A stretch of 64,000 nucleotides of DNA, taken from NCBI GenBank assembly GCA_964506245.1, contig CAZDKK010000014.1, forward strand, positions 21,792-85,791. The letters run 5' to 3'. The notes beneath the pieces are model-generated. The model was not told the DNA's origin and did not search any database. It was given only the letters and a program-made list of their open reading frames with translations. Both the position numbers and the translations under genes were made by a program. Shown here one piece after another: positions 22,958 to 60,087 of this stretch. Numbering within the stretch: the stretch's first letter is position 1; each line of letters opens with the position of its first letter. Origin of the DNA: an uncultured bacterium. GTDB taxonomy: Bacteria > Eisenbacteria > RBG-16-71-46 > CAIMUX01 > WJJG01.

Positions 22958-26335
<3,378 letters not shown>

Positions 26336-30223: not shown

Positions 30224-30237
30224 AACGATCTCCTATG

Positions 30238-34874: not shown

Positions 34875-34895
34875 GGGGCTACCTCGGATCCTCCA

Positions 34896-36375: not shown

Positions 36376-40062
<3,687 letters not shown>

Positions 40063-40252: not shown

Positions 40253-42415
40253 CTACCGTACAAGCACAACCCGCCTCGTCGCCGACGACACCCCCACATC
40301 CAGCCGGCAGAAGTAGGTGCCCGCGGGCATCGGCCGGCCGTGCTCGTTGTTCCCGGTCCAGACGACCTCGTGCGGACCGGCCGGCAAACGCCCATCCAGC
40401 AGCGACGCCACGCGCCGTCCCTCGGTCGAGAAGACGCCCAATCGCACCAGGCTTTCCTGCGAGAGCGTGAAGCGGATCAGCGCCTGCGGCGTGAACGGAT
40501 TCGGCTGACCCTCCTCCAGCACGAATCCTCCCATCACCTGCGGCTCGACGCCGGCAGCAAAGGTGCTCTGCAGCACCATCAAGCCCCCGTCACTGAGCCC
40601 CGCCAGGATCTGATTGCCCCACACCGCGACCTCCGTGGCAGCGCAGGTCGTGATGAAGTACCCGGCTTCCACCGGCGCCGACGGAACGCTCACGTCGATC
40701 ACGCGGATGCCGGCAGCATCGTCGGCCACATAGGCGTATTGCCCTTGTACGGCGACCTTCCGGGCATGGCCCGGTGTGTCGCATAGCCCCACGGGGAACG
40801 GGTCCGCCGGATCGCTGACATCGACGATGCAGAGCCCTCGCGCTCCGTTGGCGAGGTACGCGTAGTTCCCGGCCACCGCGACACCCCACGACCAGTTGTC
40901 GGGCTGGTACCCGCCGACTGCAACCGGCGAGGTGGGGTCACTGACGTCGACGATCTCCAACCCGTAGTAGTACTGGGCGACGTAGGCATAGTCGCCGCGG
41001 ACATCGACATCATGGGACCCTGCGGGGATGTTGGAGATCTCCATGGGCGCGGTCGGCACGCTGACATCGATGATGCTCAGGCCCTCCTCTTCGTGCACGA
41101 CGTACGCGTAGTTGCCTTGCGCGTCGATTTCCAGCGCGCGCCAACGGCCCTGGGTCTCGCCGAGGATCTGCGGTGCGGTGGGTTCGCTGACATCAAGGAC
41201 ACCGATGGCGCCGTAGTATCCTGCCAGGTACGCATACGGAGGAACCGGGACGGCATCCATCGCGTACCAGAAGCCCTGGAAACCCCGAGTGACGGGAATG
41301 CTCGATCCGCGGGTGTCGATGATGAAGAGACCCGCCGTGGGCACCCGGCTCCATGCATCCCCCTCACCGCCATCTTCCTCGCTGGGGCGGTAGCCCCCGC
41401 ACAAGTAGAGGTCGGAGCCCACGATGTCGAGGCTGGTGACATCGCCCACCAGGGCGTAGTACCCGAGGGACGCCGGCGCGGCGGGATCGGCGACATCGCA
41501 GATTCGCAGTCCACCCCACCACGCGGCGATATAGGCGGTGTCGTCCGCAATGAACATTCGTCCCGGGCGCCCATAGATCTCGAAGGATGACACCACGACC
41601 GGGGCAGCGGGCATGCTGACGTCCAGGATCTCCAAGTACTCCCAGAACGAGAGGATCGCGTAGTCCCCATGCATCGTAATGGAGACGACTTCGTCGTCGG
41701 CATCGTACTGCGCAACCTCCACGGGGTGGGCGGGATCGCTCACGTCGACGACCCGCATCCCGGGGACGGTGGCGATGTAGGCATAGGAGCCCGCTACCGC
41801 AACGGCGTGCACGGGTACCCAGGGATTGAAGATGCTCACCTGAACAGGGGCGGAGGACACGCTGACGTCGAGGATGCGCAGACCCACGAGCTCGTCGGCG
41901 AAATAGAGCAGATTGCCCACCAGGCACAGGTTGCCCAACGGGCTGGACGTCAGATAGTAACCGACCTGGTGCGGCGCGGCCGGCTGGCTGATGTCGAGAA
42001 TGCGCACGCCGCGCCAGTTGTCCGCGACGTAGGCGTAGTTGCCCGCCACGACCACGTCGACCGCCGTGGTTTCACAGTATCCGGACCCGACCTCGATCGG
42101 CGAGGCCGGGTCGCTGACGTCGACCACGTGCAGGCGCGGGCCACCGACGTAGGCGTATTGCCCGCTCACCGCGACGCAGCAGACCTCCGGCATGGGCAGG
42201 AACGCGACCTGGGTGGGCCCCTGCACGGCCGTGACATCCAGGATGAGCAGGCCGCTGCGCGCTGCGCAGTAGGCAAAGCTACCCTGGACCTGGACATCTT
42301 CGAGATAGCCTGGAAGGCCCCCGACGTACTCGACGTTCCATGCGTCCTGAGCGACCGCGGGCCATACGGTCACCGTCACCAGCACCAGAACGGAGGTCGC
42401 GATGGAGGATTTCAT
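40253..42415 (-). CDS. LVIVD-repeat beta-propeller protein with T9SS-type CTD
   Basis: ATG at 42415 preceded by AAGGGAG; signal peptide. More than 12 repeats of (YAYVA..GLRI[IV]DVSDPAAP). C-terminus GTYFCRLDVGVSSATRRVVLVR. Confidence 0.7.
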   Translation of the reverse strand: MKSSIATSVLVLVTVTVWPAVAQDAWNVEYVGGLPGYLEDVQVQGSFAYCAARSGLLILDVTAVQGPTQVAFLPMPEVCCVAVSGQYAYVGGPRLHVVDVSDPASPIEVGSGYCETTAVDVVVAGNYAYVADNWRGVRILDISQPAAPHQVGYYLTSSPLGNLCLVGNLLYFADELVGLRILDVSVSSAPVQVSIFNPWVPVHAVAVAGSYAYIATVPGMRVVDVSDPAHPVEVAQYDADDEVVSITMHGDYAILSFWEYLEILDVSMPAAPVVVSSFEIYGRPGRMFIADDTAYIAAWWGGLRICDVADPAAPASLGYYALVGDVTSLDIVGSDLYLCGGYRPSEEDGGEGDAWSRVPTAGLFIIDTRGSSIPVTRGFQGFWYAMDAVPVPPYAYLAGYYGAIGVLDVSEPTAPQILGETQGRWRALEIDAQGNYAYVVHEEEGLSIIDVSVPTAPMEISNIPAGSHDVDVRGDYAYVAQYYYGLEIVDVSDPTSPVAVGGYQPDNWSWGVAVAGNYAYLANGARGLCIVDVSDPADPFPVGLCDTPGHARKVAVQGQYAYVADDAAGIRVIDVSVPSAPVEAGYFITTCAATEVAVWGNQILAGLSDGGLMVLQSTFAAGVEPQVMGGFVLEEGQPNPFTPQALIRFTLSQESLVRLGVFSTEGRRVASLLDGRLPAGPHEVVWTGNNEHGRPMPAGTYFCRLDVGVSSATRRVVLVR

Positions 42416-42741
42416 CTGCTTCTCCCTTCTCTTCTCGGTCCTGCCGCCCACTACTCGATCGATCTGGAGAAGTCCGGTCAATCGACTGACAAGGCCGCTG
42501 GGCCTGGGTCGATTACACACGTCAAGTATGCGACTGGCCCAGGCAAATGGGCAAGTGGGAAGGCGAGCCTGGAGTTCCCGGCGCGAGTCGCGCTCCGTTC
42601 CCCTCGGTCGTCCGGGCGGCAGCCTTCCGGGTCATGCGGGGCCCCGCGCCGCTGTTGTCACGCCCGGCGCGGGGACCTATGCTGGCGGTCGTCATGCGCG
42701 ATCCCGTTCACATCCCAGGCGTGGCCCGCAGGCGATCGGCG

Positions 42742-43977
42742 ATGCCCCGGGGCCCGGGGGCATGGCTACTCCCGGCGCTCCTCGTGGCTCTCTGTCTCGG
42801 CCTGGGCGGCTGCAGCAAGGGCCGCTTCGAATTCGTCGTCACCGATGAGGGGGGCAAGCCCCTCGAGGGTGTCGAGGTCTGCTACCAGGTCGAGTCGCAG
42901 GGCTCAGCGCAGGATGTGGTGGTCGGACTGACCGACGCGGCCGGCAGCCTCGTGCTGGCCGGCAAGCACTTCGCAACCGGTCGCCAGTACCTGTTCCGCA
43001 AGGCGTGCGTGGCCGGCGGGAGCGGGGAACGCTTCGACCCGGTGCAGTGTGCCGTCCTGACGGGTGGGGGCGGGGGTCAGTACACGTTCGCCCTGCGCGA
43101 CGGGCTCGTCCGCCGGCCGGACCTGAGCCACCAGCTGCCGGGTCGCAAGTGGCCCGGCCGCAACGTCAGGCTCACCTGCGAGGCGGTCCCCGACGGGGCC
43201 GGCGGTTCCGGCCGCCAGCAGCCTCTGACGCGCATTCTCGACCTGACCGCCCCGGCCGGGGCCAGTGTGAGCGTCAATGGCCACGCGATGGGCACGGTGC
43301 CCGAGACGGGTTGGCTCAACACCGAGTTCTGCCCGGGCGATTCGGCCGAGTGCTTCGCGAGCATCGTGGCGGTGACGGTTTCGCAGGCCGGGTACGCACC
43401 CCGCACGGAAGAAGCTCCCCTGCCCGAGCCGCTCGGGACCGTGAAGCTGAGCGTGGCTCTGCAACGGGCTGGCGGGGCGGCGGTGGCTCAGGCGGGCAGC
43501 GGCGAAGCGGCCGGCGAGGCGGCCTCATCGGCAACCTCATCGGCCGGCGAAGCGGCGGGCGGCGGCCTCGCGCAAGTGCGGATCGAGAACCGCGGCACGC
43601 CCTTCGCGTGCGGCGCGGAGGGAGATCGGCTGCCGGTGGTCCTAGTGAACGACCGGTCTACAGTTGTCCGACCCTCATCCGCCTCGACCGATTGGAAGAC
43701 CTACTTCGATCTGCTCCTCAAGCCGGGCCAGAGCTACTGCATTGCCGTCCGCTGTCCCGACGACGAGCCGGGAGCCCTGTCGTGGAACCCGTGGGATTCG
43801 GGCCACGCCGAGTGGTACTCCATCCGCATCCCGGCCGGCGCGACGCGCCTGTTCTTCGCCGTCCCCGCCAACGAAGCCGGCCGCAACTTGAGGCTCACGC
43901 CCGTATCCGACGGTTCCTGGAAGGGGTTTCAGCCCTCGCGGGCGGTCCAGGTCACGCGGGGCTGCGAGCGCGGGTAG
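42742..43977 (+). CDS. Hypothetical lipoprotein
   Basis: Internal ATG 42742; lipobox LGLGGC; low-complexity Ala/Gly/Ser linker; no domain recognised. Confidence 0.5.
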   Translation: MPRGPGAWLLPALLVALCLGLGGCSKGRFEFVVTDEGGKPLEGVEVCYQVESQGSAQDVVVGLTDAAGSLVLAGKHFATGRQYLFRKACVAGGSGERFDPVQCAVLTGGGGGQYTFALRDGLVRRPDLSHQLPGRKWPGRNVRLTCEAVPDGAGGSGRQQPLTRILDLTAPAGASVSVNGHAMGTVPETGWLNTEFCPGDSAECFASIVAVTVSQAGYAPRTEEAPLPEPLGTVKLSVALQRAGGAAVAQAGSGEAAGEAASSATSSAGEAAGGGLAQVRIENRGTPFACGAEGDRLPVVLVNDRSTVVRPSSASTDWKTYFDLLLKPGQSYCIAVRCPDDEPGALSWNPWDSGHAEWYSIRIPAGATRLFFAVPANEAGRNLRLTPVSDGSWKGFQPSRAVQVTRGCERG

Positions 43978-44192: not shown

Positions 44193-45359
44193 ATGTCACC
44201 CATGTCCATTTCCCATCTCGCTTTCTCGTCTCTCGCTCGCGGTCCGCGGCGGTGGGGCGCCGGCGGTCTGCGGCCGATGACGACTCTCCTGATTCTCCTG
44301 GCGATCGCGCTCCCGGTCGGGACACCGGCGCCGCTGGCCCAAGAGGGCGAGGGGGAGGGCGCGGGCTGCGACCTGCTCGTCCAGCGCGCGCTCGAGTCCC
44401 TGATCAGCGACCGTTACCGCGAGGCCTTGACCTACGTCGAGCAGGCCTTTGGCGTCGCCCAGGCCGAGCCGGCCTGTCAGGCCCGCTGCCTCCAGACGCG
44501 CTCCTGCACATACCTGCGCATGGGTGAGCGGGAACAGGCGATCCAGTCGCTGTCGCAGCTCTTCGACATCAACCCCAACCCGCCCTACGACGGCCGCATG
44601 TTCCCGCCCGCGATGAACCGCCTCTTCCGCGCGGTGCGCGACTCGTTCATGCAAGCGGGCACGATGGACATCGGCACCGTCGCCGTGCTGGACTTCAAGG
44701 TCCTCAACCCCGGCAAGTATCGCTACCAGGACTACGACTACGACGCGCTCGGACAAGCGCTGCAGATGATCATCAGCACGGACATCATCGAGTCGACGAA
44801 TCTGTCGGTGGTGGACCGCACCAACATGAAGGACGTGCTGGCGGAGCTGCAGCTCAGCTCGAACGCCGATCTGACCAACCAGCAGAACCGCACCCGTCTG
44901 GGGCAGCTCCTGAACGCGCACGCCTTCGTCACCGGGCAGATCGCGTTGTTCAGCAAGGACCAGATCCGGATCGACATCCAGGTCATCCATGCGGCCACGA
45001 GCCGTGTTCTGGCCCGCCACTACGAGGGGCCATTCAGCGGCGACCCGCACAACCTGCTCGAGCTGCAGCGCGGGGTCCTCGCCGCGGTGACGGAGGCTTT
45101 GAACGAATTCCGCACCGAGGTGAAGTCGACCGACTTGCTGGCGCCCGATCCGATCTACTACGACAAGCTCGAGAAGTCGCGCCGTGCCGGCAAGCAGTAC
45201 ATGGAAACCTGGCTGCTGCAGGGGCAGGCGCTGGCCCTCGAGGACAAGCACGATCTGAAAGGCGCAATGAAGATCTGGGAGAAGGTGGCCAAGCTGGATC
45301 CCGACAACGAGGTCGCCCGCGCGCGCGTCTGGGCCATCAAATCCGAGATCGGGGGGTGA
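44193..45359 (+). CDS. Periplasmic protein with CsgG/LpoB/TolB-N-like domain (paralog 1 of 3)
   Basis: GGGAGG RBS 6 nt before ATG 44193; hydrophobic export segment LLILLAIALPVGTPAPLAQ. Core TVAVLDFKVLNPG...DALGQALQMIISTDIIESTNLSVVDRTNMKDVLAELQLSSNADL. Confidence 0.55.
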   Translation: MSPMSISHLAFSSLARGPRRWGAGGLRPMTTLLILLAIALPVGTPAPLAQEGEGEGAGCDLLVQRALESLISDRYREALTYVEQAFGVAQAEPACQARCLQTRSCTYLRMGEREQAIQSLSQLFDINPNPPYDGRMFPPAMNRLFRAVRDSFMQAGTMDIGTVAVLDFKVLNPGKYRYQDYDYDALGQALQMIISTDIIESTNLSVVDRTNMKDVLAELQLSSNADLTNQQNRTRLGQLLNAHAFVTGQIALFSKDQIRIDIQVIHAATSRVLARHYEGPFSGDPHNLLELQRGVLAAVTEALNEFRTEVKSTDLLAPDPIYYDKLEKSRRAGKQYMETWLLQGQALALEDKHDLKGAMKIWEKVAKLDPDNEVARARVWAIKSEIGG

Positions 45360-45372
45360 GGAGGTCGCGCGG

Positions 45373-46536
45373 GTGATGTTCCTCCATCGGCCGCGGTGCT
45401 GGGTGGGTGCGGTCCGCCCGGTTTCCCTCGCAGGGGTGCTCTGGGTTGCGTGCCTGGGGATCGCTTCGCCGCGCGCGGATGAACGGGGCGCGCCGCCGCC
45501 CGCGGACCTGTTCGACCTGGTGGCCGGTCACCGGCTCGATCAGCTTCTGGCCCTGGCCGGCGCGGAGCTGGATTCGGCGGAGATCCCGATCGCGCGCAAG
45601 CTCGACCTCCTGCGCGCGCTCGCCAGCGCGCACCTCGCCGAGGCCGAGGCGCGAGGTGATGCCGCCCACCGCGAGAGCGCCCGATCGGCGATGATCGCCA
45701 TGCTCAAGCTGGATCCACAGGCCGACTTCGTCCCCGGGTACCGTTTCCCGCCCCAGGTGCACGCACTCTTCCGCAAGGTCCGCGACGAATCGCGCGCGGG
45801 AGAGGAAATCGTGGCCGATCCGCGCCGCGTGGCGGTCGCTCCTTTCTACCTCGTCGACCTGGGCGCGAGCGGGCGGTTCGATTGGCGCGAGTACTGCGAA
45901 GCACTCACCTTCATGATCACGACCGATCTCGATCAGGTCCCCGGCCTGACCATCTTGTCACGCGAGCACATGGAGTCGATCCGGGGCGAGCTGGCGCTCT
46001 CGTCGCAGGCCGACTTGGTCTCGGCCGAGAATCGGATCCGCTTGCAGCGACTCCTGTCCGCCTCCTCGTTCGTCTACGGCGAGGTTCAGGCGCTGCCGGG
46101 TGACGAGATCTATCTTGAAGTGCGCTGGGTGCAGACCGAGTCAGGCGCGGTGCTCGCCGCGTATCACGATCGGGCGCGCATTCGCAAGGGGGCGGATCTC
46201 CTCGAACTCGAACACGGCGTGATCCTGGACGGGCTCCTCCCCGCCATGCTGGAGGGGCTCGGCCTCACGCGGGCGGGTGCGGGCGTCAGCGAGGTGCTGC
46301 AGCGCAAGCTGGCACAGGCAGCCAAGGGCGATACCTACTTGCACTACATCGCGGCCGTCGCCCGTGCGACCACGGCCGAGCAGTCGGGCGACATGGCCGA
46401 GGCCCTGCGGCAGTGGGGAGCTGCCAGCCGCGATTTGCCCGCAGACGCCGCCCCAGCCGAGCGCATTCGCGCGCTCAAGATGTTCTACGAGGGGGCGGAC
46501 AGCGACAGCTTGCTCAACCGTTCATCAGGAGGATGA
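45373..46536 (+). CDS. Periplasmic protein with CsgG/LpoB/TolB-N-like domain (paralog 2 of 3)
   Basis: Signal peptide. Core VAVAPFYLVDLGASGRF...CEALTFMITTDLDQVPGLTILSREHMESIRGELALSSQADL is collinear with paralog 1. Separated from its neighbours by 14 and 5 bp. Confidence 0.55.
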   Translation: MMFLHRPRCWVGAVRPVSLAGVLWVACLGIASPRADERGAPPPADLFDLVAGHRLDQLLALAGAELDSAEIPIARKLDLLRALASAHLAEAEARGDAAHRESARSAMIAMLKLDPQADFVPGYRFPPQVHALFRKVRDESRAGEEIVADPRRVAVAPFYLVDLGASGRFDWREYCEALTFMITTDLDQVPGLTILSREHMESIRGELALSSQADLVSAENRIRLQRLLSASSFVYGEVQALPGDEIYLEVRWVQTESGAVLAAYHDRARIRKGADLLELEHGVILDGLLPAMLEGLGLTRAGAGVSEVLQRKLAQAAKGDTYLHYIAAVARATTAEQSGDMAEALRQWGAASRDLPADAAPAERIRALKMFYEGADSDSLLNRSSGG

Positions 46537-46540
46537 TCGG

Positions 46541-47852
46541 CGTGAAAGCTCGTCTCATGGCGCGGCTCTGGCTGATATGGCTGATGCCGCTGGCAACGCT
46601 GGCGGGGTGCGCCGGGCGGGGTGCGTCGTTCGATCCCGCGGGGGGAAGCCGCGCGGCCTGGGTGGCTGAGTTGCCCGCGCTCGAGCAGGAAGCGGCCACC
46701 CGGCCGGACGACCCCGGTGCGCTCGGCCGCCTGGCGCTGGCCTACTTCATGGCCGATCGCTTCGAGGAGGCGGCCGCGACCGCGGCGCGCGCTCGCGAGG
46801 TCAACCCCCGCGACGGAACGGCGTGCTACGTCGAAGCGCTGCTCTTCGAGCGCGCGGGCGACTGGCGCCGGGCGGACGAGATCTACGCGGCGCGTGAGAC
46901 CCTGGCGCCGATCAGCGTCGAGCTCGAGCGGCTGATGCGCGCCCGCCACGAGATCGCCGCCCGCGAGATCATCCGGGCCGGGATCAAGGCCGACCTCGCC
47001 GCCGCCCACGGCCGCGCGCCCGAGGTCGAGCCCAACGCGCTCGTCGTGCGCCGGTTTCTGCCCGTCAGCGCCGCGCGCCGCGATTCGGTGCTCGCGGTGG
47101 GCATCACGCACTTCTTCACCCAGGCCTTCGCCGAGATCGACACCCTCACCGTGATCGACGAAACGCGGCGCCGGCTGCTCGAGGACGAGATCGCCCTCAG
47201 CTCGAGCGATGCGCTCGATCCGGGAGCGCGGCTCGTCGCGCGCACGATCGGCGCCGGCCTCGCGCTGGCGGGTCGTTCGGGCACCGACTTCCCCGACAGC
47301 GATCGCGTCGCCATCGTCTACCAGCTCGATGACCTCGCGCTGGAGCCGAAGAGCGAGTCTTGGCGCGGCACGCGTGAAATGGTGCGGATCGAGGCGCCCA
47401 CCCGCTACATCTTGACCGACGTGGGTCGCGAGGTCGTGCGCATCGCCCAGGAGCAGCTCCACCTGAGCCTGGCCCCGGCGGTGGCGGCACGGCTCGCCCA
47501 GCCGCCCACCAAGGCCTTCGCCGCCTTCATGGCCTACTCGGAGGGTCTGCTGGACGAGGGCCGCCGGGAGTACGGCAAGGCATTCGAGCGCTATCGCGAG
47601 GCGGCGCGCATCGACCCGGGCTTCGCGTGGGCTGGCGCGGCGGCCGAGCGCGTCGCGGGCGCGGGCGAACGCGGCGAGGCGCTGCCGCCGGCCGAGACGC
47701 CGCCTTCCGGGGAGGCCGGCGACCTCGAGCAGCAGGCCACGGAGATCGCCGGCCAGCAGGTTGACGATGTGCCCACGGGACACAACGAGCAGCCGAGCCC
47801 GCTGCCTCCGCTCGAGACCGAACGCGTGCGCATCGTCGTCCGGCCGCGGTAG
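46541..47852 (+). CDS. Lipoprotein with TPR-like N-region and CsgG/LpoB/TolB-N-like domain (paralog 3 of 3)
   Basis: GTG 46541 is 9 nt after AGGAGG (the ATG at 46533 abuts the RBS); lipobox LATLAGC. Core ALVVRRFLPVSAARRDSVLAVGITHFFTQAFAEIDTLTVIDETRRRLLEDEIALSSSDAL. Confidence 0.5.
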
Positions 47853-47864
47853 AAGGAGGGAGGC

Positions 47865-49061
47865 ATGCCGAGAGTCGCCGTCGCCGCGTTGATCGGCGTG
47901 ATCGTGGGCTGCGTCGCCATCCCGTTGATCGGCACGGTCGTGGGCAGCGCCGGGACAGCGGCTGCTGCGGAGGGAACAGCGGGCGCGGGCGTCGAGCTGC
48001 GATCGTGGACGGTCGACCTTCCCGGCGCCGACGCAACCTTCGAGCAGACGCTCGTCTCCACGCGCATCGAGGTTCCCCATTTGTGGGGCCCGCTCGCGCT
48101 GCGCGGCTACCTGCCCCTCGCCACGAGCCGCGACGACGAGCTCGACACCGAGATCAGCGGCGCGGGCGATGCCCAGGTGCGCCTGATGTGGCCTGCGTCC
48201 GGCACGGCCTGGACCCTCAGCCTCGGCGCCGATTTCCCGACCGGCCGGACCGGACTCACCACGACCGAGGCCCTGGTCGCCACCCGCATGCTCGGCAGCC
48301 GCGTGCTGGACTTCGGCCTCAAGCGCCCCGGCGAAGGCTTCGACCTGATGCTGGGGGCGTCCCGTGCAATCCGCGCCGGTCGCACCACGGTCGCCGGCGT
48401 CGCCTTGGCCGGTCACCTCAAGGGCGACTACGCGCTCTACGAGGAGGACGGCGTCGAGCACACGGCCTCGCCGGGCAATCGCATCCACGTCGCCCTCTCG
48501 TTGCTCGCCCGCGAGCATCCCGAGGATCCTGACTGGGACCTCGACCTGACGCTGGGCGGACAATGGGCCGGCGACTACACGCTCGAAGAACGCGGCGGAG
48601 AGATCACGGTCGCGGAGGGGGCGCTGGGGACGCTGGATGCCTCGTACAGACACCGCGTGGGCGAGGAAGGGCGACTCTCGCTCTCCGCGCACCTCCTCGC
48701 GCGCGACCACGACGAGCTCACCGGCGGCAGGGCGATCGAGACGGAGTTGCTCGGGCTCTCGACGCGCTGGGTGACGGCGCTGGGGTTGGGCTACGGGCGC
48801 CCCCTCGGCACCTGGGCCGATATCTCGGCCGGCGTGAGCTACGCCCTTTACTGCAACGACCCGGCAGGCGACCTCAACAGCGACGTGACCGCGCTCGATC
48901 TGGGGCTGCACCGCGCGCTCGGCGAAAACCTGCAGTTGAACGCCTCCGCCGAGTACGCCTTCGGAAACACGATGTGGAGCGAACTGGGCGGAGACGGTGC
49001 GGCGGACCGGCGCCCGCTGACAGGAACGACTCTGGGGATCGGCCTGGAGCTTGTCTTCTAG
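47865..49061 (+). CDS. Outer-membrane beta-barrel protein
   Basis: AAGGAGGGAGG RBS; signal peptide. Alternating hydrophobic beta-strand pattern; C-terminal ...LGIGLELVF with terminal Phe typical of OMPs. Confidence 0.55.
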   Translation: MPRVAVAALIGVIVGCVAIPLIGTVVGSAGTAAAAEGTAGAGVELRSWTVDLPGADATFEQTLVSTRIEVPHLWGPLALRGYLPLATSRDDELDTEISGAGDAQVRLMWPASGTAWTLSLGADFPTGRTGLTTTEALVATRMLGSRVLDFGLKRPGEGFDLMLGASRAIRAGRTTVAGVALAGHLKGDYALYEEDGVEHTASPGNRIHVALSLLAREHPEDPDWDLDLTLGGQWAGDYTLEERGGEITVAEGALGTLDASYRHRVGEEGRLSLSAHLLARDHDELTGGRAIETELLGLSTRWVTALGLGYGRPLGTWADISAGVSYALYCNDPAGDLNSDVTALDLGLHRALGENLQLNASAEYAFGNTMWSELGGDGAADRRPLTGTTLGIGLELVF

Positions 49062-49091
49062 GACGACCGCCCCGCCAGCAAGGTGAGACGC

Positions 49092-52000
49092 ATGATTGCG
49101 CACTTCACGCTCGCTCGTCGCGCGGGCCCGCGGGTTCTGTGGGCGGCGCGAATCGCGTTCTGCGTACTGGTCCTGGTTGGCCCCACCAGCTGCGATCGGG
49201 ACACGGCCACGGTTCCCCAGCACGTCCCCAATGGCGGCTTCGGCGTCGGCCTCTGGCTTCCGCCGGATGGCGCCTGGGATGGACAAGTGCAGGCCGCGCT
49301 GCAGGACTCCTCCCAAGTGTGGCTCTACCTGCTGGGCGCCGATCCCCCGTCCCGGTTCAGCGAGCGCCCGCACCCTGACAATCCAGCGCGGCCGCCCTAC
49401 GCCCGCGCGTCGGCGGGCTTGTCCGGCGACATCGTGCTCGAGATCGATCCGCTCGACCAAGCGACTTGGTGGCGCGTCTTCGTGCGTCGCGGCGGGCTGC
49501 TCGGCCAGACCACGTTCACCCTCGCGCCGGAGGATCGCGAGCACATCGCCAATCTGATGCTCGCGCCCGAGACGGCCGTGGAAGACGGCCTCGTGGTCTA
49601 CGCCGGCCTGCCGGTCGCCCAGGGCGGGTCGCCGCCCGACGCGAGCGGATCCCTCGACGCGGGGGTGACGCTGCTCTTCCCGGTGGCCGTCGAGAACCCC
49701 ACGGCGATCGACGGCCTGTCCTTCGCCTACGCCCTCGACCTCTCCGTCGAGAGCACCGTGTACGTCGATCCCGGCAGCAGGCTGTGTGCGGGCGGGGACA
49801 GCCTCGCCTATGTGTTCTTCGTGACGCCCCTCGATGCGCAAGGCGGATGCCGGCGATTCTCCCTCAGCCTGCGTCGCGCCGAGGGCCCAGGACTCGTTGC
49901 GCCTGTCGCCGCCGGCGCCGACGTTCTCTTCTACATCGCGGCCGCGGGCGACACCGCCGGCGCGAGCTTGTGTCTCGACCGCACCTCCGTGCGCTTCAAG
50001 GTGGGCGCCGAGGAAGACACGGTACCGGCCCATCGTGTCGTGGGACCGGCCGAGTGCGAGTATCCGGTCTGCGAGGCGGCCATCTCGAGCCCGATGTCGG
50101 GCGAAGTGCTGTGCGCCGGCGCGGCTGCGACCATCACCTGGACCACGAACGCCTGCTGCGGATCGACCGTGGGAATCGCCCTCCTCCACGACCGCGTGGT
50201 CTGCCGCACGATCGCGGCGACCACCGCCAATGACGGCGAGCACGTCTGGACCGTCACCGGCTGCGGGGAGGCGCAATCCGACTACCAGATCGCGCTCCTC
50301 GATGCGAGCCAGGCGATCATCGCGGCAACGACGGGCGGCTTCAGCATCGAGCCGGGCTGCCGCATCGCCGTGACCGCCCCAGCCGGCGGTGAGCGCTATA
50401 CCGAGGGCGAGAGCCGGATCCTGCAGTGGCAGCCGGGCGGGTGTTGCGGGGACGAAGTGCGACTCGAGCTGCTCAGCGAAGGCGAACCCTGCCTGACGAT
50501 CGCCGCTACCACCGAGAACGACGGCATGTTCTCCTGGACGGTGGCGCCCTGCAGTGAGATGTACAGCGCCTATCGGCTGCGCGTGACCGATCTCGAGACG
50601 CAGGCGATCGGAGAAAGCGGCCAGAACTTCTCCATCTTTCCAGCCTGCGCGCCAATCGTCGACTACCCCAACGGCGGCGAGACATTCTGCGTCGGACAAC
50701 CCGAGACGCTGACCTGGATGGGCTTCGGATGTCAGGGTCCCATGCGGGTCGAGCTGCTGCGGGACGGCGAGTCGTGCCTCACCATCGCAGAGGATGCGCC
50801 CAACACCGGGAGCTACGAGTGGACCCCGGTGCCCTGCGAGCAGGGCGCCGGGGAATACTCGCTGCGGATCGCAGACCAACAGACCGGCGCCGCCGACACG
50901 AGCGCCGCGCCCTTCACGATCGCGCCGGCTTGCTCGCTTGGTGTCACAAGCCCGACCGCAGGCCAGGGTTTCTGCCCGGGGGATCCGGTCACGATCACCT
51001 GGACCGTCGCGACCTGCTGCGGGCCGTCTGTGGGTATCGAGCTGCTGCACAACGGTGTGAGCTGCCTGACGATTGTAGACAGCACGCCGAACAACGGGTC
51101 CTACGCCTGGATCGCTGAGCCATGCGAAGGCACAACCGGCGCGGCCCCGGCGTACAGCATCCGGGTCACCGACCCCGAGACGGAGGCGACAGGCACGAGC
51201 CCGGGGTTGTTCACGATCGGCACCTGCGAGCCGGCGATCACTGGTCCCGCCCCGGGCGCGGAGTTGTGCTTGGGCAGCACCGTGGAGGTGACCTGGACGG
51301 CCGCCGAGTGCTGCGGCGAGCTGGTGCGCGTGGAACTGCTGTGCGACGGCCTTGCTTGCGGGGTGATCGCCGATTCGACCGCCAACGACGGGTCGCTCCT
51401 GTGGACCGTGGGCGAACCCGGCTCTGCGGGTGTCAACTTCGGACTGCGGGTGACCGACCTGGAGAGCGGCAACTCCGGCACGGTCGCGCCCTTCGGGATC
51501 GCTCCGAGCTGCGCCATCGTGGTGACCGGCCCCACCGTGCAAGACGAGGTCTGCGAGGGCGCCCCGATCGAGGTGACCTGGACTGCGTCGAGCTGCTGTG
51601 CATCCCAGGTGAGCATCGAGCTCCTGCTCCTGGGGGATCCCTGCCTGACGATCGCTGCATCCACCGAGAACAACGGCCTCTACCTCTGGACGCCCGAGCG
51701 CTGCGACGGGGCGACCGAGGGCTACACGATCCGCGTCGCCGAGATCGGCGGGCAGATCGCCGGCGAGACCCCCGCGGCCTTCACCATCGGCCCGCCGTGC
51801 GCGATCGCGATCACCAGCCCCACCCCCCAGGCCACGCTGTGCGAGGGCGACCAGCTCGACATCACCTGGTCGGCCAGTGCCTGCTGCGGCGACCTCACGC
51901 GGATCGAGCTCCTGCTCAACGGCACGGTCTGCGAAACGATCGCGACCGTGCTCCAGGGCAGCTCCTATGCGTGGACCGTCGCCGCCTGCGGATCGCCCAC

Positions 52001-53231
52001 CGACAACCACGGCGTGCGCGTCACCAACGTCTCCACCGGGCAATCGGACGAGGTCACGGGCCTGACGATCCACCCGGCCTGCGCCCTGGATCTGACCTAT
52101 CCGGACGGCGGTGAGACGCTGTGCGCCGGAGAGACGGTCGAGATCCTGTGGACTTATGGCGCCTGCTGCGGCCGCACCGTTGCGATCGATTTGCTGCGCG
52201 ACGGCATTTCCTGCCGCAGCATCGCGACAGCGGCGGCCAACACAGGCCACTACGCGTGGACCGTCGGCGGCTGCGGGACCGCAACCCAGGGGTACCAGGT
52301 CCGCGTCCGGGACCTCTCCACCATGACGGAGGCGACGAGCGCCGTGACCTTCTCGGTCGAGGCCGAGTGCGCCATCACCATCACCAGCCCGGGCTACGGC
52401 GACGAATATTGCGCCGGCGATTTGGTCGACATCGAGTGGCTGGCCTCGTCCTGCTGCCCCGACACCTTCACGGTCGAACAGCTTTGCGACGGCGCGGTCT
52501 GCGCAACGATCGCCGTCGGGGTCACCGGCTCGTCGTACGCCTGGGAAGCGAGCATCCCCCCGGGCAGCCTGGGCAGCTACACGATCCGCGTCCGCGGCGG
52601 GGACTACGCCGGTGAAAGCGACGTCTTCACCGTCAGCGACGAATGCATCGTGTACATCAACTATCCCAACGGGGAGGAGGAGCTGTGCGAGGGTGATCCG
52701 ATCACGATCACGTGGGGTCACGAGCTGTGCTGCGGATCGTCCGTCGGAATCGCGCTCCTGCGCGAGGGGGTGGTAGTGGATGTCATCGCCTCGTCGACCG
52801 CCAACGACGGCTCGCACCCCTGGACACCGGAGCGGTTCAACTCGAGCTCGGTGGGCTACCAGATCCAGATCACGGACTTGCAGACCGGCGTCGTGGATCT
52901 GTCGGATGCCATGTTCCGCATCAACCCCGAGTGCTACATCGACGCCAACGCGCCGAACGGTGGTATGTACTATCCTGAAGAGCCGGTCACCATCGCGTGG
53001 GACTACAGCCCCTGTTGCGAGGGTCCGGTTCGCATCGAGCTGCTTCTCGAGAGCGAACCCTGCGCACCGCCCCTCGTGATCGCGGCGTCGACGCCAAACG
53101 ACGGCCTCTATACTTGGCCCGCCGTGCCATGCGGGAGCGAGCCGTTCCCCTACACGGTGCTCATCACGCACCTTGGCACCGGGGTCTCTAGCACGACGCG
53201 GGAACCCTTCTGGATCACGCTGGAGGACTGA
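49092..53231 (+). CDS. Giant cell-surface protein with 11 tandem Kre9/KNH-like (Ig-fold) Cys-containing repeats
   Basis: N-terminal signal/anchor. Eleven repeats of ~95 aa share [IV]TW.......CCG..V.[IV]ELL.DG..C.TIA.ST.NDG.Y.WT...C....Y.[IL]RVTD. No T9SS CTD at the end. The GTG at 49083 is the track start; the ATG at 49092 is preferred. Confidence 0.7.
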   Translation: MIAHFTLARRAGPRVLWAARIAFCVLVLVGPTSCDRDTATVPQHVPNGGFGVGLWLPPDGAWDGQVQAALQDSSQVWLYLLGADPPSRFSERPHPDNPARPPYARASAGLSGDIVLEIDPLDQATWWRVFVRRGGLLGQTTFTLAPEDREHIANLMLAPETAVEDGLVVYAGLPVAQGGSPPDASGSLDAGVTLLFPVAVENPTAIDGLSFAYALDLSVESTVYVDPGSRLCAGGDSLAYVFFVTPLDAQGGCRRFSLSLRRAEGPGLVAPVAAGADVLFYIAAAGDTAGASLCLDRTSVRFKVGAEEDTVPAHRVVGPAECEYPVCEAAISSPMSGEVLCAGAAATITWTTNACCGSTVGIALLHDRVVCRTIAATTANDGEHVWTVTGCGEAQSDYQIALLDASQAIIAATTGGFSIEPGCRIAVTAPAGGERYTEGESRILQWQPGGCCGDEVRLELLSEGEPCLTIAATTENDGMFSWTVAPCSEMYSAYRLRVTDLETQAIGESGQNFSIFPACAPIVDYPNGGETFCVGQPETLTWMGFGCQGPMRVELLRDGESCLTIAEDAPNTGSYEWTPVPCEQGAGEYSLRIADQQTGAADTSAAPFTIAPACSLGVTSPTAGQGFCPGDPVTITWTVATCCGPSVGIELLHNGVSCLTIVDSTPNNGSYAWIAEPCEGTTGAAPAYSIRVTDPETEATGTSPGLFTIGTCEPAITGPAPGAELCLGSTVEVTWTAAECCGELVRVELLCDGLACGVIADSTANDGSLLWTVGEPGSAGVNFGLRVTDLESGNSGTVAPFGIAPSCAIVVTGPTVQDEVCEGAPIEVTWTASSCCASQVSIELLLLGDPCLTIAASTENNGLYLWTPERCDGATEGYTIRVAEIGGQIAGETPAAFTIGPPCAIAITSPTPQATLCEGDQLDITWSASACCGDLTRIELLLNGTVCETIATVLQGSSYAWTVAACGSPTDNHGVRVTNVSTGQSDEVTGLTIHPACALDLTYPDGGETLCAGETVEILWTYGACCGRTVAIDLLRDGISCRSIATAAANTGHYAWTVGGCGTATQGYQVRVRDLSTMTEATSAVTFSVEAECAITITSPGYGDEYCAGDLVDIEWLASSCCPDTFTVEQLCDGAVCATIAVGVTGSSYAWEASIPPGSLGSYTIRVRGGDYAGESDVFTVSDECIVYINYPNGEEELCEGDPITITWGHELCCGSSVGIALLREGVVVDVIASSTANDGSHPWTPERFNSSSVGYQIQITDLQTGVVDLSDAMFRINPECYIDANAPNGGMYYPEEPVTIAWDYSPCCEGPVRIELLLESEPCAPPLVIAASTPNDGLYTWPAVPCGSEPFPYTVLITHLGTGVSSTTREPFWITLED

Positions 53232-53260: not shown

Positions 53261-53794
53261 TCACCCCTCCGCCGGCACCTGCCGCGTCTCCTTCACCTCC
53301 AGGAAGAACCGCTCTCCCGCCTGGAGACCGCCGGCGCCCCCCTTGATGAAAGGTCCGATCAGTATCAGCGTGAGCACGATCGATGTGAACGTGCGCGACT
53401 TGCCCTTGAACGCCTGGCGGCCTTTGATCGCCACCGGGACCTGATCCCCGCCCACCTCGATCCAACCGTCCGTGAAGACGACCTGGCCGGCTTTGCCGAA
53501 CATCCCGTTCCCTTTGGCCTCTGCGACCACGAGCACGCCCTCGGTCCCAGCCGGGACCGCCACCTGCTCGTGCACCACCACGTCACTGACGACGCGGAAA
53601 TGCACCTGGCCCTCGGCCTCGACGCGGCCACCGGTGGCATCGTCGATCATCTCGGCCTCGATCTCGCAACCCTCGCGCAGCGTGACCATCGTCTGGGCGG
53701 CAGCGGTGAGCAGCGGCAGCGGGAGCTGTCCGATGATCAGCGCGCCCATGAGGACCATCACCAACCCTCTGCGCAGGTTCTTCGCGCGAAGCAT
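53261..53794 (-). CDS. Hypothetical small membrane-associated protein
   Basis: Internal ATG 53794 with AAGGAGG RBS; N-terminal signal/TM, beta-rich middle, C-terminal hydrophobic segment SIVLTLILIGPF; last gene of the minus-strand operon. Confidence 0.4.
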   Translation of the reverse strand: MLRAKNLRRGLVMVLMGALIIGQLPLPLLTAAAQTMVTLREGCEIEAEMIDDATGGRVEAEGQVHFRVVSDVVVHEQVAVPAGTEGVLVVAEAKGNGMFGKAGQVVFTDGWIEVGGDQVPVAIKGRQAFKGKSRTFTSIVLTLILIGPFIKGGAGGLQAGERFFLEVKETRQVPAEG

Positions 53795-53808
53795 GGGAGA
53801 CCTCCTCC

Positions 53809-54618
53809 TTACTGCTCGATTCGATACACCACATCCGCGATTCGCTGCGGCTCTCCCCCACCCGCCTCGTAGAGGCACCAGAGGTCGTAGCGCCGCACGG
53901 GTCGGTAGGCCAACGTCGCGATCGAGATCTCGGAGCGCCGCTCGACCGGCAGCTCGCTCAGGGCGCCGCGCATGAGGCGCCGCACCGCCTTCGTCACCCG
54001 CGATGCGAGGATGCGAACCGCGGCCCCCTCGCCGAGGGCCGCCGACACTTCGGCCACTTGCTGTTGCGCCGCGGGCGACAGAGGCTCCGAGGAATTCGAG
54101 CCTTGGCCTGCGGTTGCGGCCGCCCCCGCGCTCGTGGCGGGCTGCAGCATCTTCGCGTCGATCGTCAGCGCCGCGCACTGGTCGCCTTCGAACCAGCGAT
54201 CCCGGAAGAAGCCGGCATCCTCGTAGGCGAAGGGGTCGGCACCCCCCTCCAGGTAATCATTGTGGGGGATCGTCAGGAGCTGGTGGAACCAGGCCATACG
54301 CCCACCCGCGTCTACGCCCTGTCGCAGGACTTTGCCCACCAGGTGCGTCGTGCCGGCGCCGTCATCGCTCCGGGGGATCGCGCCGGCACCATCTTCGCCC
54401 CGCGGGGTCACACTGCCCCCCACACCCGCATCCCCGCTCGGCACGGCCACGTGATACAAGGCGCCGCCGAAGTCCGGCGTCAGGATCTCGCCCCACGACT
54501 TGCACGCCTCCACGGCCTGCTGGGCGAGCTTGGGCGTAATGCCCTCGGAGCGCGAGACCAGCGTGAATCCCTGTGTGAAGGTGAACGTGCCGTAGACGAG
54601 CTGTTCGACGCGGATCAT
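53809..54618 (-). CDS. Hypothetical protein (unknown function, co-operonic with the GTPase)
   Basis: ~270 aa, GGGGA RBS, no TM helices, Gly/Ala-rich low-complexity stretches, no domain recognised. Confidence 0.45.
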   Translation of the reverse strand: MIRVEQLVYGTFTFTQGFTLVSRSEGITPKLAQQAVEACKSWGEILTPDFGGALYHVAVPSGDAGVGGSVTPRGEDGAGAIPRSDDGAGTTHLVGKVLRQGVDAGGRMAWFHQLLTIPHNDYLEGGADPFAYEDAGFFRDRWFEGDQCAALTIDAKMLQPATSAGAAATAGQGSNSSEPLSPAAQQQVAEVSAALGEGAAVRILASRVTKAVRRLMRGALSELPVERRSEISIATLAYRPVRRYDLWCLYEAGGGEPQRIADVVYRIEQ

Positions 54619-54691
54619 CACGTCCCCTTCGCCAGAGGCCTACACCGGGCGCATCCCCTGCGCCCATCGACTGCGCGTCGACGCCGCTGCA

Positions 54692-57049
54692 TCAGAGGTT
54701 CGGCAGCGCCGTCGTCAAATCGGGGAAAGCGACCGTCACCCCCAGGTTCCCGCGGAAGACATGCCGGCCGCCATCCTCCTGGATCTGGAAGAGCGCCCAG
54801 CGGCCGCTCACCTCCCACTCGTCGACGATCTTGTTGCCGGTGCTCTTCGGGTCGGTCTTCTCGATGCCGATCTTGACCGCGTCGCCCGGCTTCCAGCGCA
54901 GGCGTCCGGGCAGCCCGGGCTCGATGTCAGTCGGGTCCCAGGCGTTGGTCTCGGTGTTCCACACGCGCAGATGATAGCCCCGCGGGCACTCGCTGGCTTC
55001 GACCTTGACCAGCATGCCGCTCTTCTCGACCGCTTCGATCTTGCCGAGGAAGCGCTGGACGCGCTGCGCGTCGGGCGTGCCGGCGAAATCGCGCGTAAAG
55101 TTGCGCAGGCGCCCTTTGAACGCCTCGCTGAAACGGTAGTCCAGGCCGCTGCCCTCCATGTCCTGGATGATGCTGTCCAGCTCCTCGCCCGCGCCGGCCG
55201 ACGCCACTTCCTGGCCCAGGCCGCTCAGGCTGGACGCAATGCGCCCACCGATCGCCTGGCCGTTGACCGGACCGATGCTGCGGAGCTGCGCCGCGATGCC
55301 CGCCAGCTCGTCGGGATTGTCCTGGGCCCCGATCGCCCGCTCGAGCAGCCCGCCGATCTCGCGCACGTTGACGTAGGTCGTGCGCCACGGCCCGGTGTCC
55401 TGCAGGTCATCGGCATAGGCCTCGACGTACGCCTTGCACAGGTCGTTGATCCGCTGCAAAGCCGACCACGAGCGCCCGCCCAGACCCGCGACGCCGCGGA
55501 TGATCTGGTCGAGGTCCTGGCTGCGCACGTCCCCCATCACGCCGGTCTGCCGCTGCCGCCAGCGGCTCTGCCACTCGCTCACGTTCTCGGGCCGGAAGAG
55601 CTGCTTGATCGCCGCATCGACGTCTGCCGGGGCCGCGCGCGAGCCGGCGAGCATCGGCTGCAGGCGCCGCTCGACGAAGGCGCGGTCCCACTCGCCCTCG
55701 CGCCGCGCGAGCGTCTCGTCGCACGAGCGGTACTCCTGCGACGCGGAGGGGAACTGGTCGCGCATCTCGCGCATCGCCCGGCGGGCTTCGGAGAACTCCT
55801 CATAGGCAAGACCCGGCACCGCGTCGCGCATCTTGGCCGAGAGCGCGCGGGCCTGTTCGTACTGGAGGATGAGGCCGGCCGTCTCGCGGAATTCGGGCTT
55901 GAAGAAACCAGCCAGCAGGCTGTTGCGATAGCCCTCGAGCGCGTCGACCTTCTCCGCGGCCGTGCCGCCGCCCACGCCGCCCAGGCCGGCGAGCTTGCGG
56001 ATCTTCTGGATGCGCCCCTCGTGCCAGGCGTTGACCAGCGAGAAGAGGATGATGAACACTGCCGCCGCCCCGGCGATCCACCACTTGATCCGCTGCGCGA
56101 TGAGCGCCTTGCGCTTCTCCATGAGGAGGTGCACCGACCAGACGAAGGGCCGCTCCAGTCCGACCGGCCGCAGGTCCTTCGGCGGCCGCGTCTCGCCCGC
56201 CGGCGTGCGCTCGAGCCCGCCGGTCGAGGAGATGAAGAAGATCTGCAGGTCGGGTGACTTGGTCAGGCAGTAGTCCACGAGGGGTTTCAGCAGCGAGAGC
56301 GCGCGGTCGACCTGGTCGCGCCAGGGCAGATGGCGCGCGACGTGCGGCTGCTGCAGGACGGCCGAGACGAAGCTGTCGTAGCCGCGATAGCGCGAGTAGC
56401 GGATGGTGTCGCCGACCAGGACCACCTGGTCCTCGCCCTGGAAGCCGTCGAGCAGGTCGGCCTTGGTGATGACGACCGCCACCGGGATCTTCAGGCGATT
56501 GCGCGCGCCCTCGACGAGCTGCGCGAGCATCAGCTCGAACGAGTCGATCTTCTTGCGCCGGCGCACGCTGGCCTCGCGCCCCTCGACGATCAGGTCCTCG
56601 GCGTCGACCAGCACGAAGACGGCGTCGCAGCTCTCGAAGTATTCGAGGAACCCCTTGCCCGTCTCGACCTCGCGATCGATCGAGATGCTCTCACCCTGGT
56701 AGTCCTGCGACTCGAACGGGTAGCGGATGGTCGTGTCGATCACCGCCGTGAAGCGGTAGAGGCGCTCGGTCGCGGTGGGCGGCGGCCACTGCCCGGCGGC
56801 GAGCAGGTCGAAGTAGCTGCTCATGTCCTGGCGCGTCTGGAAGTCGTCGGTCTCGAGGGAGAAGTCGCGCCGGCCGTGTGTCTTGTGCCACAGCATCGTC
56901 AGGAAGACGGTCTTGCCCGCCCGCGTATGACCGAAGATGCCGATCTTGCGTTCTTTCGGGCGGCGTCCTCCACGCTTGGCCTGCGCCTTGGCCGCCTGTC
57001 CTTGCACCTTCTTGGCCTGCGTCGCGCCTTTCTTGAGCAACTTGAACAT
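54692..57049 (-). CDS. Membrane-anchored P-loop GTPase with large periplasmic C-terminal region (TssM/IcmF-like topology, hypothesis)
   Basis: G1 GIFGHTRAGKT, G3 DYQGE, G4-like VVITKADL. A single TM (IKWWIAGAAAVFIILFSLV) lies at ~aa 300, then ~460 aa of predicted periplasmic region. The ATG is 3 nt after the upstream gene's TGA. Confidence 0.6.
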   Translation of the reverse strand: MFKLLKKGATQAKKVQGQAAKAQAKRGGRRPKERKIGIFGHTRAGKTVFLTMLWHKTHGRRDFSLETDDFQTRQDMSSYFDLLAAGQWPPPTATERLYRFTAVIDTTIRYPFESQDYQGESISIDREVETGKGFLEYFESCDAVFVLVDAEDLIVEGREASVRRRKKIDSFELMLAQLVEGARNRLKIPVAVVITKADLLDGFQGEDQVVLVGDTIRYSRYRGYDSFVSAVLQQPHVARHLPWRDQVDRALSLLKPLVDYCLTKSPDLQIFFISSTGGLERTPAGETRPPKDLRPVGLERPFVWSVHLLMEKRKALIAQRIKWWIAGAAAVFIILFSLVNAWHEGRIQKIRKLAGLGGVGGGTAAEKVDALEGYRNSLLAGFFKPEFRETAGLILQYEQARALSAKMRDAVPGLAYEEFSEARRAMREMRDQFPSASQEYRSCDETLARREGEWDRAFVERRLQPMLAGSRAAPADVDAAIKQLFRPENVSEWQSRWRQRQTGVMGDVRSQDLDQIIRGVAGLGGRSWSALQRINDLCKAYVEAYADDLQDTGPWRTTYVNVREIGGLLERAIGAQDNPDELAGIAAQLRSIGPVNGQAIGGRIASSLSGLGQEVASAGAGEELDSIIQDMEGSGLDYRFSEAFKGRLRNFTRDFAGTPDAQRVQRFLGKIEAVEKSGMLVKVEASECPRGYHLRVWNTETNAWDPTDIEPGLPGRLRWKPGDAVKIGIEKTDPKSTGNKIVDEWEVSGRWALFQIQEDGGRHVFRGNLGVTVAFPDLTTALPNL

Positions 57050-57052
57050 GGC

Positions 57053-57964: not shown

Positions 57965-57999
57965 CCCGCACAGCTCCTTTCAGACTCCCGGGTCGGTGA

Positions 58000-60000: not shown

Positions 60001-60087
60001 CCGCCTCATCGGGAGCAGGTCACCGCCACATTCCTCGCGGGCGCGAGTGAGCGCTGGCCAGTGACGAAGCGTTGCAGGGAGGAACTG

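Follow-up and report, generated by a model that had tools for sequence, protein, structure and literature searches.

How bacteria beyond the model phyla hold very large adhesins or enzymes on the outer membrane is, to our knowledge, largely unknown, and for type IX secretion (T9SS) we know of an identified barrel partner only for type B cargo. A 64,000-nucleotide stretch of contig CAZDKK010000014.1 (positions 21,792 to 85,791; hereafter the window), from an uncultured soil-type bacterium of Candidatus Eisenbacteria, puts the question in concrete form. It contains a five-gene operon (genes A to E) that encodes three periplasmic proteins of one family, an uncharacterized outer-membrane barrel and a very large, Cys-rich lipoprotein. 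A first-pass annotation, made from the sequence alone, compared these parts to a dedicated secretion pathway such as that for curli. We asked what the operon is for, and arrive at a tentative answer: it may encode a platform, anchored at the outer membrane, on which a large cell-surface protein docks and which perhaps assists in its display.

The operon and its close relatives

The five open reading frames (ORFs) all lie on the plus strand, where the first-pass annotation had placed them, and are divided into the following features.

44193 to 45359, plus strand: A, periplasmic protein with TPR helices, a TolB-N/LpoB-like core and C-terminal helices; signal of the signal-peptidase-I type
44667 to 45041, plus strand: core alpha/beta domain of A, residues 159-283 (AlphaFold2 model; Pfam CsgG match at residues 159-253)
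45373 to 46536, plus strand: B, periplasmic paralog of A over the full length; signal peptide present, lipobox absent (BLASTP, hhalign; weak CsgG and LpoB matches)
46542 to 47852, plus strand: C, lipoprotein (lipobox LAGC) with TPR helices, a divergent TolB-N/LpoB-like core and a TPR-like C-terminus (lipobox, hidden Markov model, intermediate sequences)
47865 to 49061, plus strand: D, outer-membrane beta-barrel of an unnamed family (motif; C-terminal Phe)
49083 to 50069, plus strand: EN, the N-terminal domain of E (about 300 residues), with a lipoprotein signal at Cys37; adjoins D in all related loci
50070 to 53231, plus strand: repeat array of E, 11 tandem Cys-rich immunoglobulin (Ig)-like domains of about 95 residues, a variable extension (Pfam; 11-unit alignment)

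The genes are separated by 13 bp (A-B), 12 bp (C-D) and 21 bp (D-E). The B-C gap is 5 bp if C begins at the GTG at 46542, which agrees with a 436-residue database protein (P0025), or 20 bp if it begins at the ATG at 46557; with either start the arrangement is the tight operon, with gaps of 5-22 bp, that had been described. A possibly has an alternative start at 44277. The GC content of the operon region is 66-72%, and a 2326-residue antisense ORF spanning the operon is a typical high-GC shadow ORF. Promoter and terminator scans of the locus performed no better than on shuffled sequences, and PADLOC returned no match for the operon or for the cluster downstream of it.

Homologs of A are annotated as proteins of Candidatus Eisenbacteria metagenome-assembled genomes. 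In all eight distinct related loci, A-B-C-D and an E-type gene are syntenic, so the proposed gene neighborhood is conserved. The constant part of E in these loci is the N-terminal domain only: the repeats are absent from L002, L003 and L005, and iterative searches identified the gene after D as EN alone in L003 (a 348-residue ORF) and L005 (a 424-residue ORF). Three EN-domain proteins are encoded nearby in L002; in two, the domain is joined to FGE-sulfatase domains, and EN therefore behaves as a portable N-terminal module. The two fusions flank the operon of that locus (7371-9770, minus strand; 16975-18984, plus strand).

The protein encoded by the whole of E (49083-53231, plus strand) has the size and composition first reported for it, about 1.38 thousand residues and rich in Cys (1382 residues, 67 Cys). 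Its residues 1-329 form a domain that matches no Pfam family. The 11 tandem units that follow are 24-46% identical in pairwise comparison, possess six conserved Cys positions and match Kre9_KNH (2e-59), Big_7 (7.5e-36) and, weakly, fn3. Six Cys per repeat are consistent, on sequence grounds, with an oxidizing, extracytoplasmic location. A T9SS C-terminal sorting domain (CTD) of the Por_Secre_tail or FlgD_ig type was not found in E by Pfam scan.

In Bacteroidota, acidic residues after the lipidated Cys are a mark of surface-exported lipoproteins, which serves here as a lead and not as a test. Eight related EN-domain proteins have classic lipoboxes in which acidic residues mostly come next (C-DYEQ, C-SHEE, C-ARDE and similar); C orthologs have no acidic residues after the lipobox Cys. 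The earlier suggestion that E is a giant adhesin serving as the dedicated substrate of the operon calls for revision, since related loci can do without the repeats (L003 and L005 retain EN only) and the conserved part is an N-terminal lipoprotein domain of about 300 residues.

The barrel family and the genes that accompany it

D comprises 398 residues and ends in LELVF, as first annotated, and it has the general attributes of an outer-membrane barrel: a signal peptide, an all-beta prediction, a C-terminal aromatic residue and barrels as structural neighbors. A profile search of 1.84 billion representative sequences recovered 285 representative clusters at E<=1e-3, mostly of 360-420 residues, with the conserved motif G..LPTG[KR]T.L...E(19 aa)G.G. 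Ten clusters were sampled, and all that have a name are called "hypothetical protein".

Searches against named barrel families left a distant link to COG4313/Phenol_MetA_deg. Phenol_MetA_deg and OMP_b-brl gave only weak matches across the D of the window, five close homologs and 44 diverse family members. The Phenol_MetA_deg (PF13557)/COG4313 match to the window D reached 17.7 bits against a 22-bit cut-off and was weak in four of six close members; one distant member (P0043) scored 35.8 bits, above threshold. PorP_SprF matched neither D (NCBIfam, E<=1) nor six close members (E<=10) nor 44 diverse members (E<=1), the DUF560 Slam barrel matched neither D nor its family (50 members scanned), and a sequence search of the PDB with the D profile returned no match.

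For remote D homologs, we read seven genomic contexts. In six, the gene immediately ahead of D, contiguous or overlapping with it, encodes a TPR-plus-CsgG-like protein of 441-547 residues; the exception is L015, where D stands between a giant protein upstream and a 457-residue C-like TPR protein downstream. The spacing between C-like and D-like genes ranges from -20 to +12 nt. An additional A-like protein is encoded in six of the seven contexts and giant Ig-repeat proteins in several. One C-like relative (in L016) carries PG_binding_1, a peptidoglycan-binding domain. That locus (7198-21146) encodes A-like, C-like (with the PG_binding_1 insert) and D-like proteins, then, on the same strand, a 381-residue protein and an Ig-repeat protein of 1147 residues; a VipA/VipB fusion, VipB (sheath in type VI secretion, T6SS) and DUF2169 genes come after the 1147-residue protein, again on the same strand.

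A wider metagenome sample came from a search with a degenerate nucleotide pattern of the D motif, which yielded 98 loci, 91 of them with a D gene; this sample is biased to carriers of the exact LPTGK motif, about 10% of the D family. The 91 loci span a GC content of 34-74%. Sixty-three loci have sufficient upstream sequence, and in 48 of them a C-like gene lies directly upstream of D; where flank was available on both sides a core-family gene adjoins D in 33 of 38. Among the 15 loci that offer 2.5 kb or more to either side, clustering of neighboring ORFs placed large secreted proteins on the module's strand in 14.

At least 17 distant loci have a gene for a large CTD protein adjoining D, and all of these CTDs are of type A, in contrast to the window, where E has none. 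In 17 loci the protein that ends exactly at the D start has a conserved domain of about 340 residues followed by the type A sorting domain, with Por_Secre_tail above the Pfam threshold. The pre-CTD domain is without a Pfam family (L044, L086, L112, L022, L025, L028, L036 and others); the proteins that contain it range from 416 to 2806 residues, and their N-terminal parts are mutually unrelated. EN has no detectable relationship to this domain (hhalign E 0.28). Since the large neighbors of D in distant loci carry a T9SS CTD, they would cross the outer membrane by the T9SS and not through D.

Together, these surveys identify the C-D pair as the invariant unit, with A-type paralogs and a large extracytoplasmic protein as its usual companions and kinases as frequent ones. 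Because a scaffold-barrel core recurs beside large surface proteins in numerous further uncultured bacteria, docking or display of those proteins seems its likeliest role, ahead of a curli-like secretion pore.

The three paralogs have a scaffold- or sensor-type fold

A, B and C had been described as paralogs with a common core of about 70 residues and a fold like that of CsgG and LpoB. The quoted motif is present in all three proteins, and profile and structure searches recovered the predicted fold. Pfam CsgG (PF03783) matched A at 35.7 bits, above its gathering threshold of 20.8, over profile positions 8-101 of 210 only; B scored 15.6 bits, under the cut-off, and C was without a match. LpoB matches to A were below threshold (Pfam PF13036, 19.5 vs 22.3 bits; NCBIfam TIGR02722, 16.7 vs 110.55 bits), as was a weak match to FlgO.

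An AlphaFold2 model of A, built from a 20-sequence alignment, reached a predicted local distance difference test score (pLDDT) of 75.8. It consists of N-terminal TPR helices, a compact beta-alpha-alpha-alpha-beta-beta-beta core (residues 159-283; strands 162-171, 244-254, 257-266 and 272-280; helices 183-201, 209-220 and 230-240) and a C-terminal helical region. Foldseek searches with this model ranked TolB first (E 2e-4), matched LpoB with a target TM-score of 0.62-0.63 and gave a 231-column alignment with CadC's periplasmic sensor domain. Structural superposition with the TolB-N/LpoB-like alpha/beta fold gave significant scores. The A core is the size of LpoB (about 120 residues) and has short hairpins only, its best structural matches are soluble domains, and the membrane-forming beta-hairpins of CsgG were not found in the modeled core. 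A, B and C are without the pore-making half of CsgG and are therefore scaffold- or sensor-type domains, not channels.

The relationship between A and B is direct: they align end to end with 26% identity (BLASTP E=1e-28; hhalign 1.6e-25). C, compared directly with A and with B, gave no significant BLASTP match (E 0.1-0.2), and hhalign values of 0.006 and 0.024 were no better than a C vs D control (0.012). An HMM of the A/B core, conversely, found the corresponding region in 13 members of the C family (P per sequence, 4e-5 to 0.016), and all 13 outranked every reversed-sequence or unrelated control (best control 0.019). Intermediate sequences supply further links: L012_441 matches both C (1.6e-18) and A (8.8e-10), C matches the A-like L011_338 at 1.3e-7, and the A-like and C-like proteins of L017 match each other at 1.7e-35. 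C-like proteins of distant relatives also have weak precomputed Pfam CsgG matches. We accepted the paralogy of C because of the core-HMM test with its controls and the intermediate links, not because of the direct comparison; judged by sequence, A, B and C are three paralogs, with C strongly diverged.

The paralogs differ in how they are anchored. The lipobox of C (LAGC) is kept in eight of eight orthologs, whereas no lipobox was found in 18 A homologs or eight B orthologs; A and B have cleavable signals of the signal-peptidase-I type. The first-pass annotation had assigned TPR-like helices and a lipobox to a single copy, which is correct for the lipobox of C but not for the TPR-like helices, which occur in A, B and C. 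The strongest Pfam TPR_2 match among the three is that of A. A PDB sequence search with the C profile found TPR proteins only, and six of eight C-family members have weak TPR_Slam matches (best 2e-4). Three Cys residues in the N-terminal TPR region of A (C59, C95 and C105) are near-invariant over 18 homologs, a pattern that suggests a disulfide or metal site in the periplasmic TPR domain.

A proposed docking platform and its alternatives

We favor the docking reading, while putting it at somewhat less than an even chance: the gene products would build an envelope platform, anchored at the outer membrane, where a large cell-surface protein docks and perhaps receives help with its display. D would be the membrane-embedded beta-barrel. 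The lipoprotein C, with its TPR and TolB-N/LpoB-like domains, would sit beneath the barrel and form the core pair with it. A and B, as soluble periplasmic paralogs of C, would lengthen this scaffold toward the peptidoglycan and the inner membrane, possibly as hetero-oligomers. E would engage the platform through its N-terminal domain, its 11 Ig-like domains projecting as a disulfide-stabilized stalk. Other lineages pair the C-D core (with or without A) with T9SS cargo that has a conserved domain just before its sorting signal, and often with bitopic Ser/Thr kinases too, so that the platform may additionally report surface events to the cytoplasm.

Support for such a platform comes from the synteny and C-D coupling described above, from the large secreted neighbors, from the lipoboxes of EN-domain proteins and the conserved Cys of the E repeats, from PG_binding_1 in one C-like relative, from the A/B/C fold, which is used by envelope scaffolds and sensors (the FlgT-type ring protein, TolB, LpoB and the periplasmic domain of CadC), and from precedent, in that complexes of PorE and PorP with type B CTD cargo, and of SprF with SprB, have the same parts list. 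The sequences show which genes are present, their paralogy and fold, the lipoprotein signals and the conservation of neighborhoods; physical association of the components, the surface location of E, and docking rather than translocation are what we infer from this evidence.

Several observations weigh against this reading. The structure model of D is of low confidence (pLDDT 53), and D has no detectable relation to the PorP/SprF or Slam barrels. The lipobox of the window E is atypical (PTSC). The large secreted neighbors constitute a heterogeneous single-linkage cluster, and because CTD proteins are common in such genomes, part of their association with D could be background. Kinase, FHA and PP2C neighbors, together with one adjacency to a T6SS sheath, point to signaling or to another machine rather than to simple anchoring. 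Lastly, all of the evidence is metagenome sequence.

The most serious alternative is that the operon encodes an envelope sensing or signaling scaffold. A, B and C would then be free-standing modules of the CadC/TolB-N-plus-helical sensor type, which C and D keep at the outer membrane and which pass an envelope or surface signal to a partner in the inner membrane. Relatives would use a bitopic Hanks-type kinase as that partner, and this lineage maybe the adjacent membrane GTPase cluster. The long Foldseek alignment of A with the CadC sensor domain agrees with this, as does a Ser/Thr kinase within the module in five of the seven distant loci and 17 of the 91 metagenome loci, with FHA and PP2C genes beside the kinase in L013 and L014. 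These kinases cross the membrane with one helix, and their C-terminal domain, which in one relative has weak Pfam PEGA and CarboxypepD_reg matches, is extracytoplasmic; a weak PEGA match recurs in up1, a gene upstream of A. In addition, a convergent cluster with a single-pass membrane GTPase adjoins the operon in the window, L002, L003, L005 and L009. However, none of the Eisenbacteria loci has a kinase, FHA or PP2C gene within the operon or next to it, kinases are linked to the module less generally than large secreted proteins are, and neither a ligand nor a signaling output is evident. We consider this role unlikely. It is compatible with docking, and the two are not mutually exclusive.

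A secretion or translocation pathway for E is less probable still. It could take the form of a CsgG-like pore built from A, B and C, or of a Slam-like translocon in which D and C flip E to the surface. Its attractions are the above-threshold CsgG match of A, the position of E directly after D, the lipoprotein nature of E with acidic residues after the Cys in orthologs, and the TPR_Slam matches in the C family. The CsgG match, however, covers only the soluble half of the profile, the modeled core is LpoB-sized and devoid of membrane hairpins, and A and B are not lipoproteins. Pfam scans of genes around the operon and of the related loci gave no match to csgA-, csgB-, csgE- or csgF-like genes. 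The curli-pore version, and with it the annotated comparison to a curli channel, is contradicted on two counts: the channel half of CsgG is missing, and the curli partner genes are absent. Against the Slam-like version, TPR matches are promiscuous, none of the 50 D-family members scanned has a DUF560 or PorP match, and the large neighbors in relatives, with T9SS sorting domains of their own, would not need D for export.

We regard as very improbable a regulator of peptidoglycan or outer-membrane biogenesis comparable to LpoB/LpoA/LpoP, CpoB or TolB-Pal, in which a tethered TPR and LpoB-like protein reaches through the wall to control synthases or constriction. PG_binding_1 in one C-like relative speaks for it; on the other side, the LpoB scores given above are far under threshold, no penicillin-binding protein, tol-pal or division genes occur in the neighborhoods read, and the invariant barrel and the large secreted neighbors would go unexplained.

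That the module is an accessory, in the outer membrane or periplasm, to a contractile T6SS-like apparatus is scarcely credible: although the L016 module lies directly upstream of same-strand VipA/VipB sheath genes, a PAAR gene lies upstream in L003, and the minus-strand cluster of the window has a TssK N-terminal domain protein and a membrane GTPase with a weak IcmF-related_N match, sheath adjacency occurs in one locus among more than 100, sheath, Hcp and VgrG genes were not found in the scanned parts of the window, and the GTPase cluster fits a described conflict system (PMC7159879). Identity of the module with TssNOPQR, the T6SS membrane complex of Bacteroidota, was rejected, as no TPR, CsgG-like or barrel parts are described there (PMC10781749).

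Returning to the docking platform, a bolder proposal is possible, although we hold it with more doubt. The C-D pair may be an undescribed, widespread outer-membrane machine of T9SS-bearing and related uncultured phyla. Each copy would be dedicated to one giant surface protein, recognized through a cognate docking domain (EN in Eisenbacteria; the pre-CTD domain of about 340 residues elsewhere), and would hold or thread it at the surface; modules that encode a bitopic Ser/Thr kinase would also report its state across the envelope. In the libraries and literature searched we found no description of the barrel family, of either candidate docking domain or of the conserved module, and nothing relevant to the operon was found in the Eisenbacteria literature; the folds are known and the logic has precedent. 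What emerges is a testable candidate: a barrel family that almost always has a TPR/LpoB-like lipoprotein partner and usually a large secreted protein, together with two unannotated candidate docking domains. If the kinase link is functional, the module would also be a surface-to-cytoplasm signaling route; if it is only a lineage-specific scaffold, the result still offers a useful annotation for several hundred hypothetical proteins.

Neighboring genes in the window

Outside the operon, the following features stand out.

22958 to 40062, mostly minus strand: lower-GC stretch (0.60-0.65 around 26-34 kb)
40253 to 42520, minus strand: LVIVD-repeat protein (11 repeats) with a FlgD_ig-type tail
42547 to 43977, plus strand: up1, lipoprotein; lipobox kept in orthologs; weak Big_1, PEGA and CarboxypepD_reg matches
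53261 to 60009, minus strand: convergent five-gene cluster after the operon
60061 to 62496, plus strand: Reg_prop beta-propeller with a FlgD_ig-type tail

The up1 gene lies 215 bp upstream of A, has its probable start at 42742 (MPRGPGAWLLPALLVALCLGLGGC) and was absent from the operon as first annotated. Orthologs lie upstream of A in four of the eight related loci (L001, L004, L007 and L008), and up1 is likely an accessory member of the operon. As up1 and the kinase tail of one relative both have weak PEGA and CarboxypepD_reg matches, up1 might be a kinase-less counterpart.

The convergent cluster encodes a 669-residue TssK N-terminal domain protein (TIGR03353, 1.9e-12), a 303-residue protein, a 785-residue DO-GTPase2 protein (one transmembrane helix at about residues 321-339), a GAP1-N2/M-like protein and a small membrane protein. 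L002, L003, L005 and L009 keep its three operon-proximal genes (small membrane protein, GAP1 and GTPase) beside the operon. The cluster corresponds to the DO-GTPase/GAP1 conflict systems, in whose description TssK is not mentioned (Kaur et al. 2020, PMC7159879).

The FlgD_ig tails of the LVIVD-repeat and Reg_prop proteins are the form that T9SS sorting domains take in these lineages, which implies that the organism has a T9SS. Genes of the lower-GC stretch include those for a 1125-residue HEPN_Swt1 plus DUF499 protein and a 1228-residue helicase-like protein, and the stretch looks like a defense island.

Comparison with known systems

The likeness to the CsgG/HfaB family is partial. In A the N-terminal half of CsgG, with its alpha/beta fold, is recognizable, and C is a lipoprotein as CsgG is. 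The channel-forming half of the profile and the membrane hairpins have no counterpart, two of the three paralogs are not lipoproteins, and the operon adds TPR flanks and encodes a separate barrel while having no genes for CsgE, CsgF or curlin.

Other proteins with this fold are neighbors rather than family. A falls below the sequence-family thresholds of LpoB and FlgO; TolB has a beta-propeller that A, B and C lack; and a Vibrio flagellar H/T-ring protein (PDB 8z5n chain 5) is a neighbor at the level of fold, but the operon is without flagellar genes. The periplasmic domain of CadC comes close in that its alignment also covers the helical region after the core of A, although A, B and C have neither the DNA-binding nor the transmembrane part of CadC.

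For the barrel, the COG4313/Phenol_MetA_deg channels (PDB 4rl8) are the sole named family with a sequence signal for D. D is about 100 residues longer and has its own LPTGKT...GEG motif, the window D is sub-threshold, and the low confidence of its model limits the structural side of the comparison. Slam, in which a TPR region and a DUF560 barrel occur together, resembles the operon in its TPR, its barrel, an adjacent lipoprotein gene and the weak TPR_Slam signal of the C family. The operon differs in having TPR and barrel on separate proteins and a D without DUF560, and the TPR similarity is generic.

The closest parallel is functional. PorE, a TPR lipoprotein, and PorP, an outer-membrane barrel that anchors the surface protein, hold a type B CTD surface protein (PG1035) encoded next door, and SprF-SprB of Flavobacterium is a further case (Gorasia et al. 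2022, PMC9143113). The first-pass annotation held that the combination of parts fits no known system; no homologous system has indeed been described, but the parts list of PorE, PorP and cargo is the same (PMC9143113): a periplasmic TPR lipoprotein at the outer membrane, a barrel, and a gene for a large surface protein beside that of the barrel. The peptidoglycan-binding domain of the L016 C-like protein adds a likeness to PorE.

The differences lie in the proteins themselves. C has a TolB-N/LpoB-like core where PorE has WD40, CRD and OmpA_C domains; the operon has two extra soluble paralogs, A and B; E is a lipoprotein without a CTD; and the partners in relatives carry CTDs of type A, not type B. 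D has no PorP_SprF match in Pfam or NCBIfam and is thus not a detectable PorP homolog, and the relationship is therefore one of functional analogy, not membership. If the proposal of a C-D machine dedicated to giant surface proteins is true, the module would represent a novel type of anchor and sensor specific to its cargo, a counterpart of PorP/SprF without homology to it.

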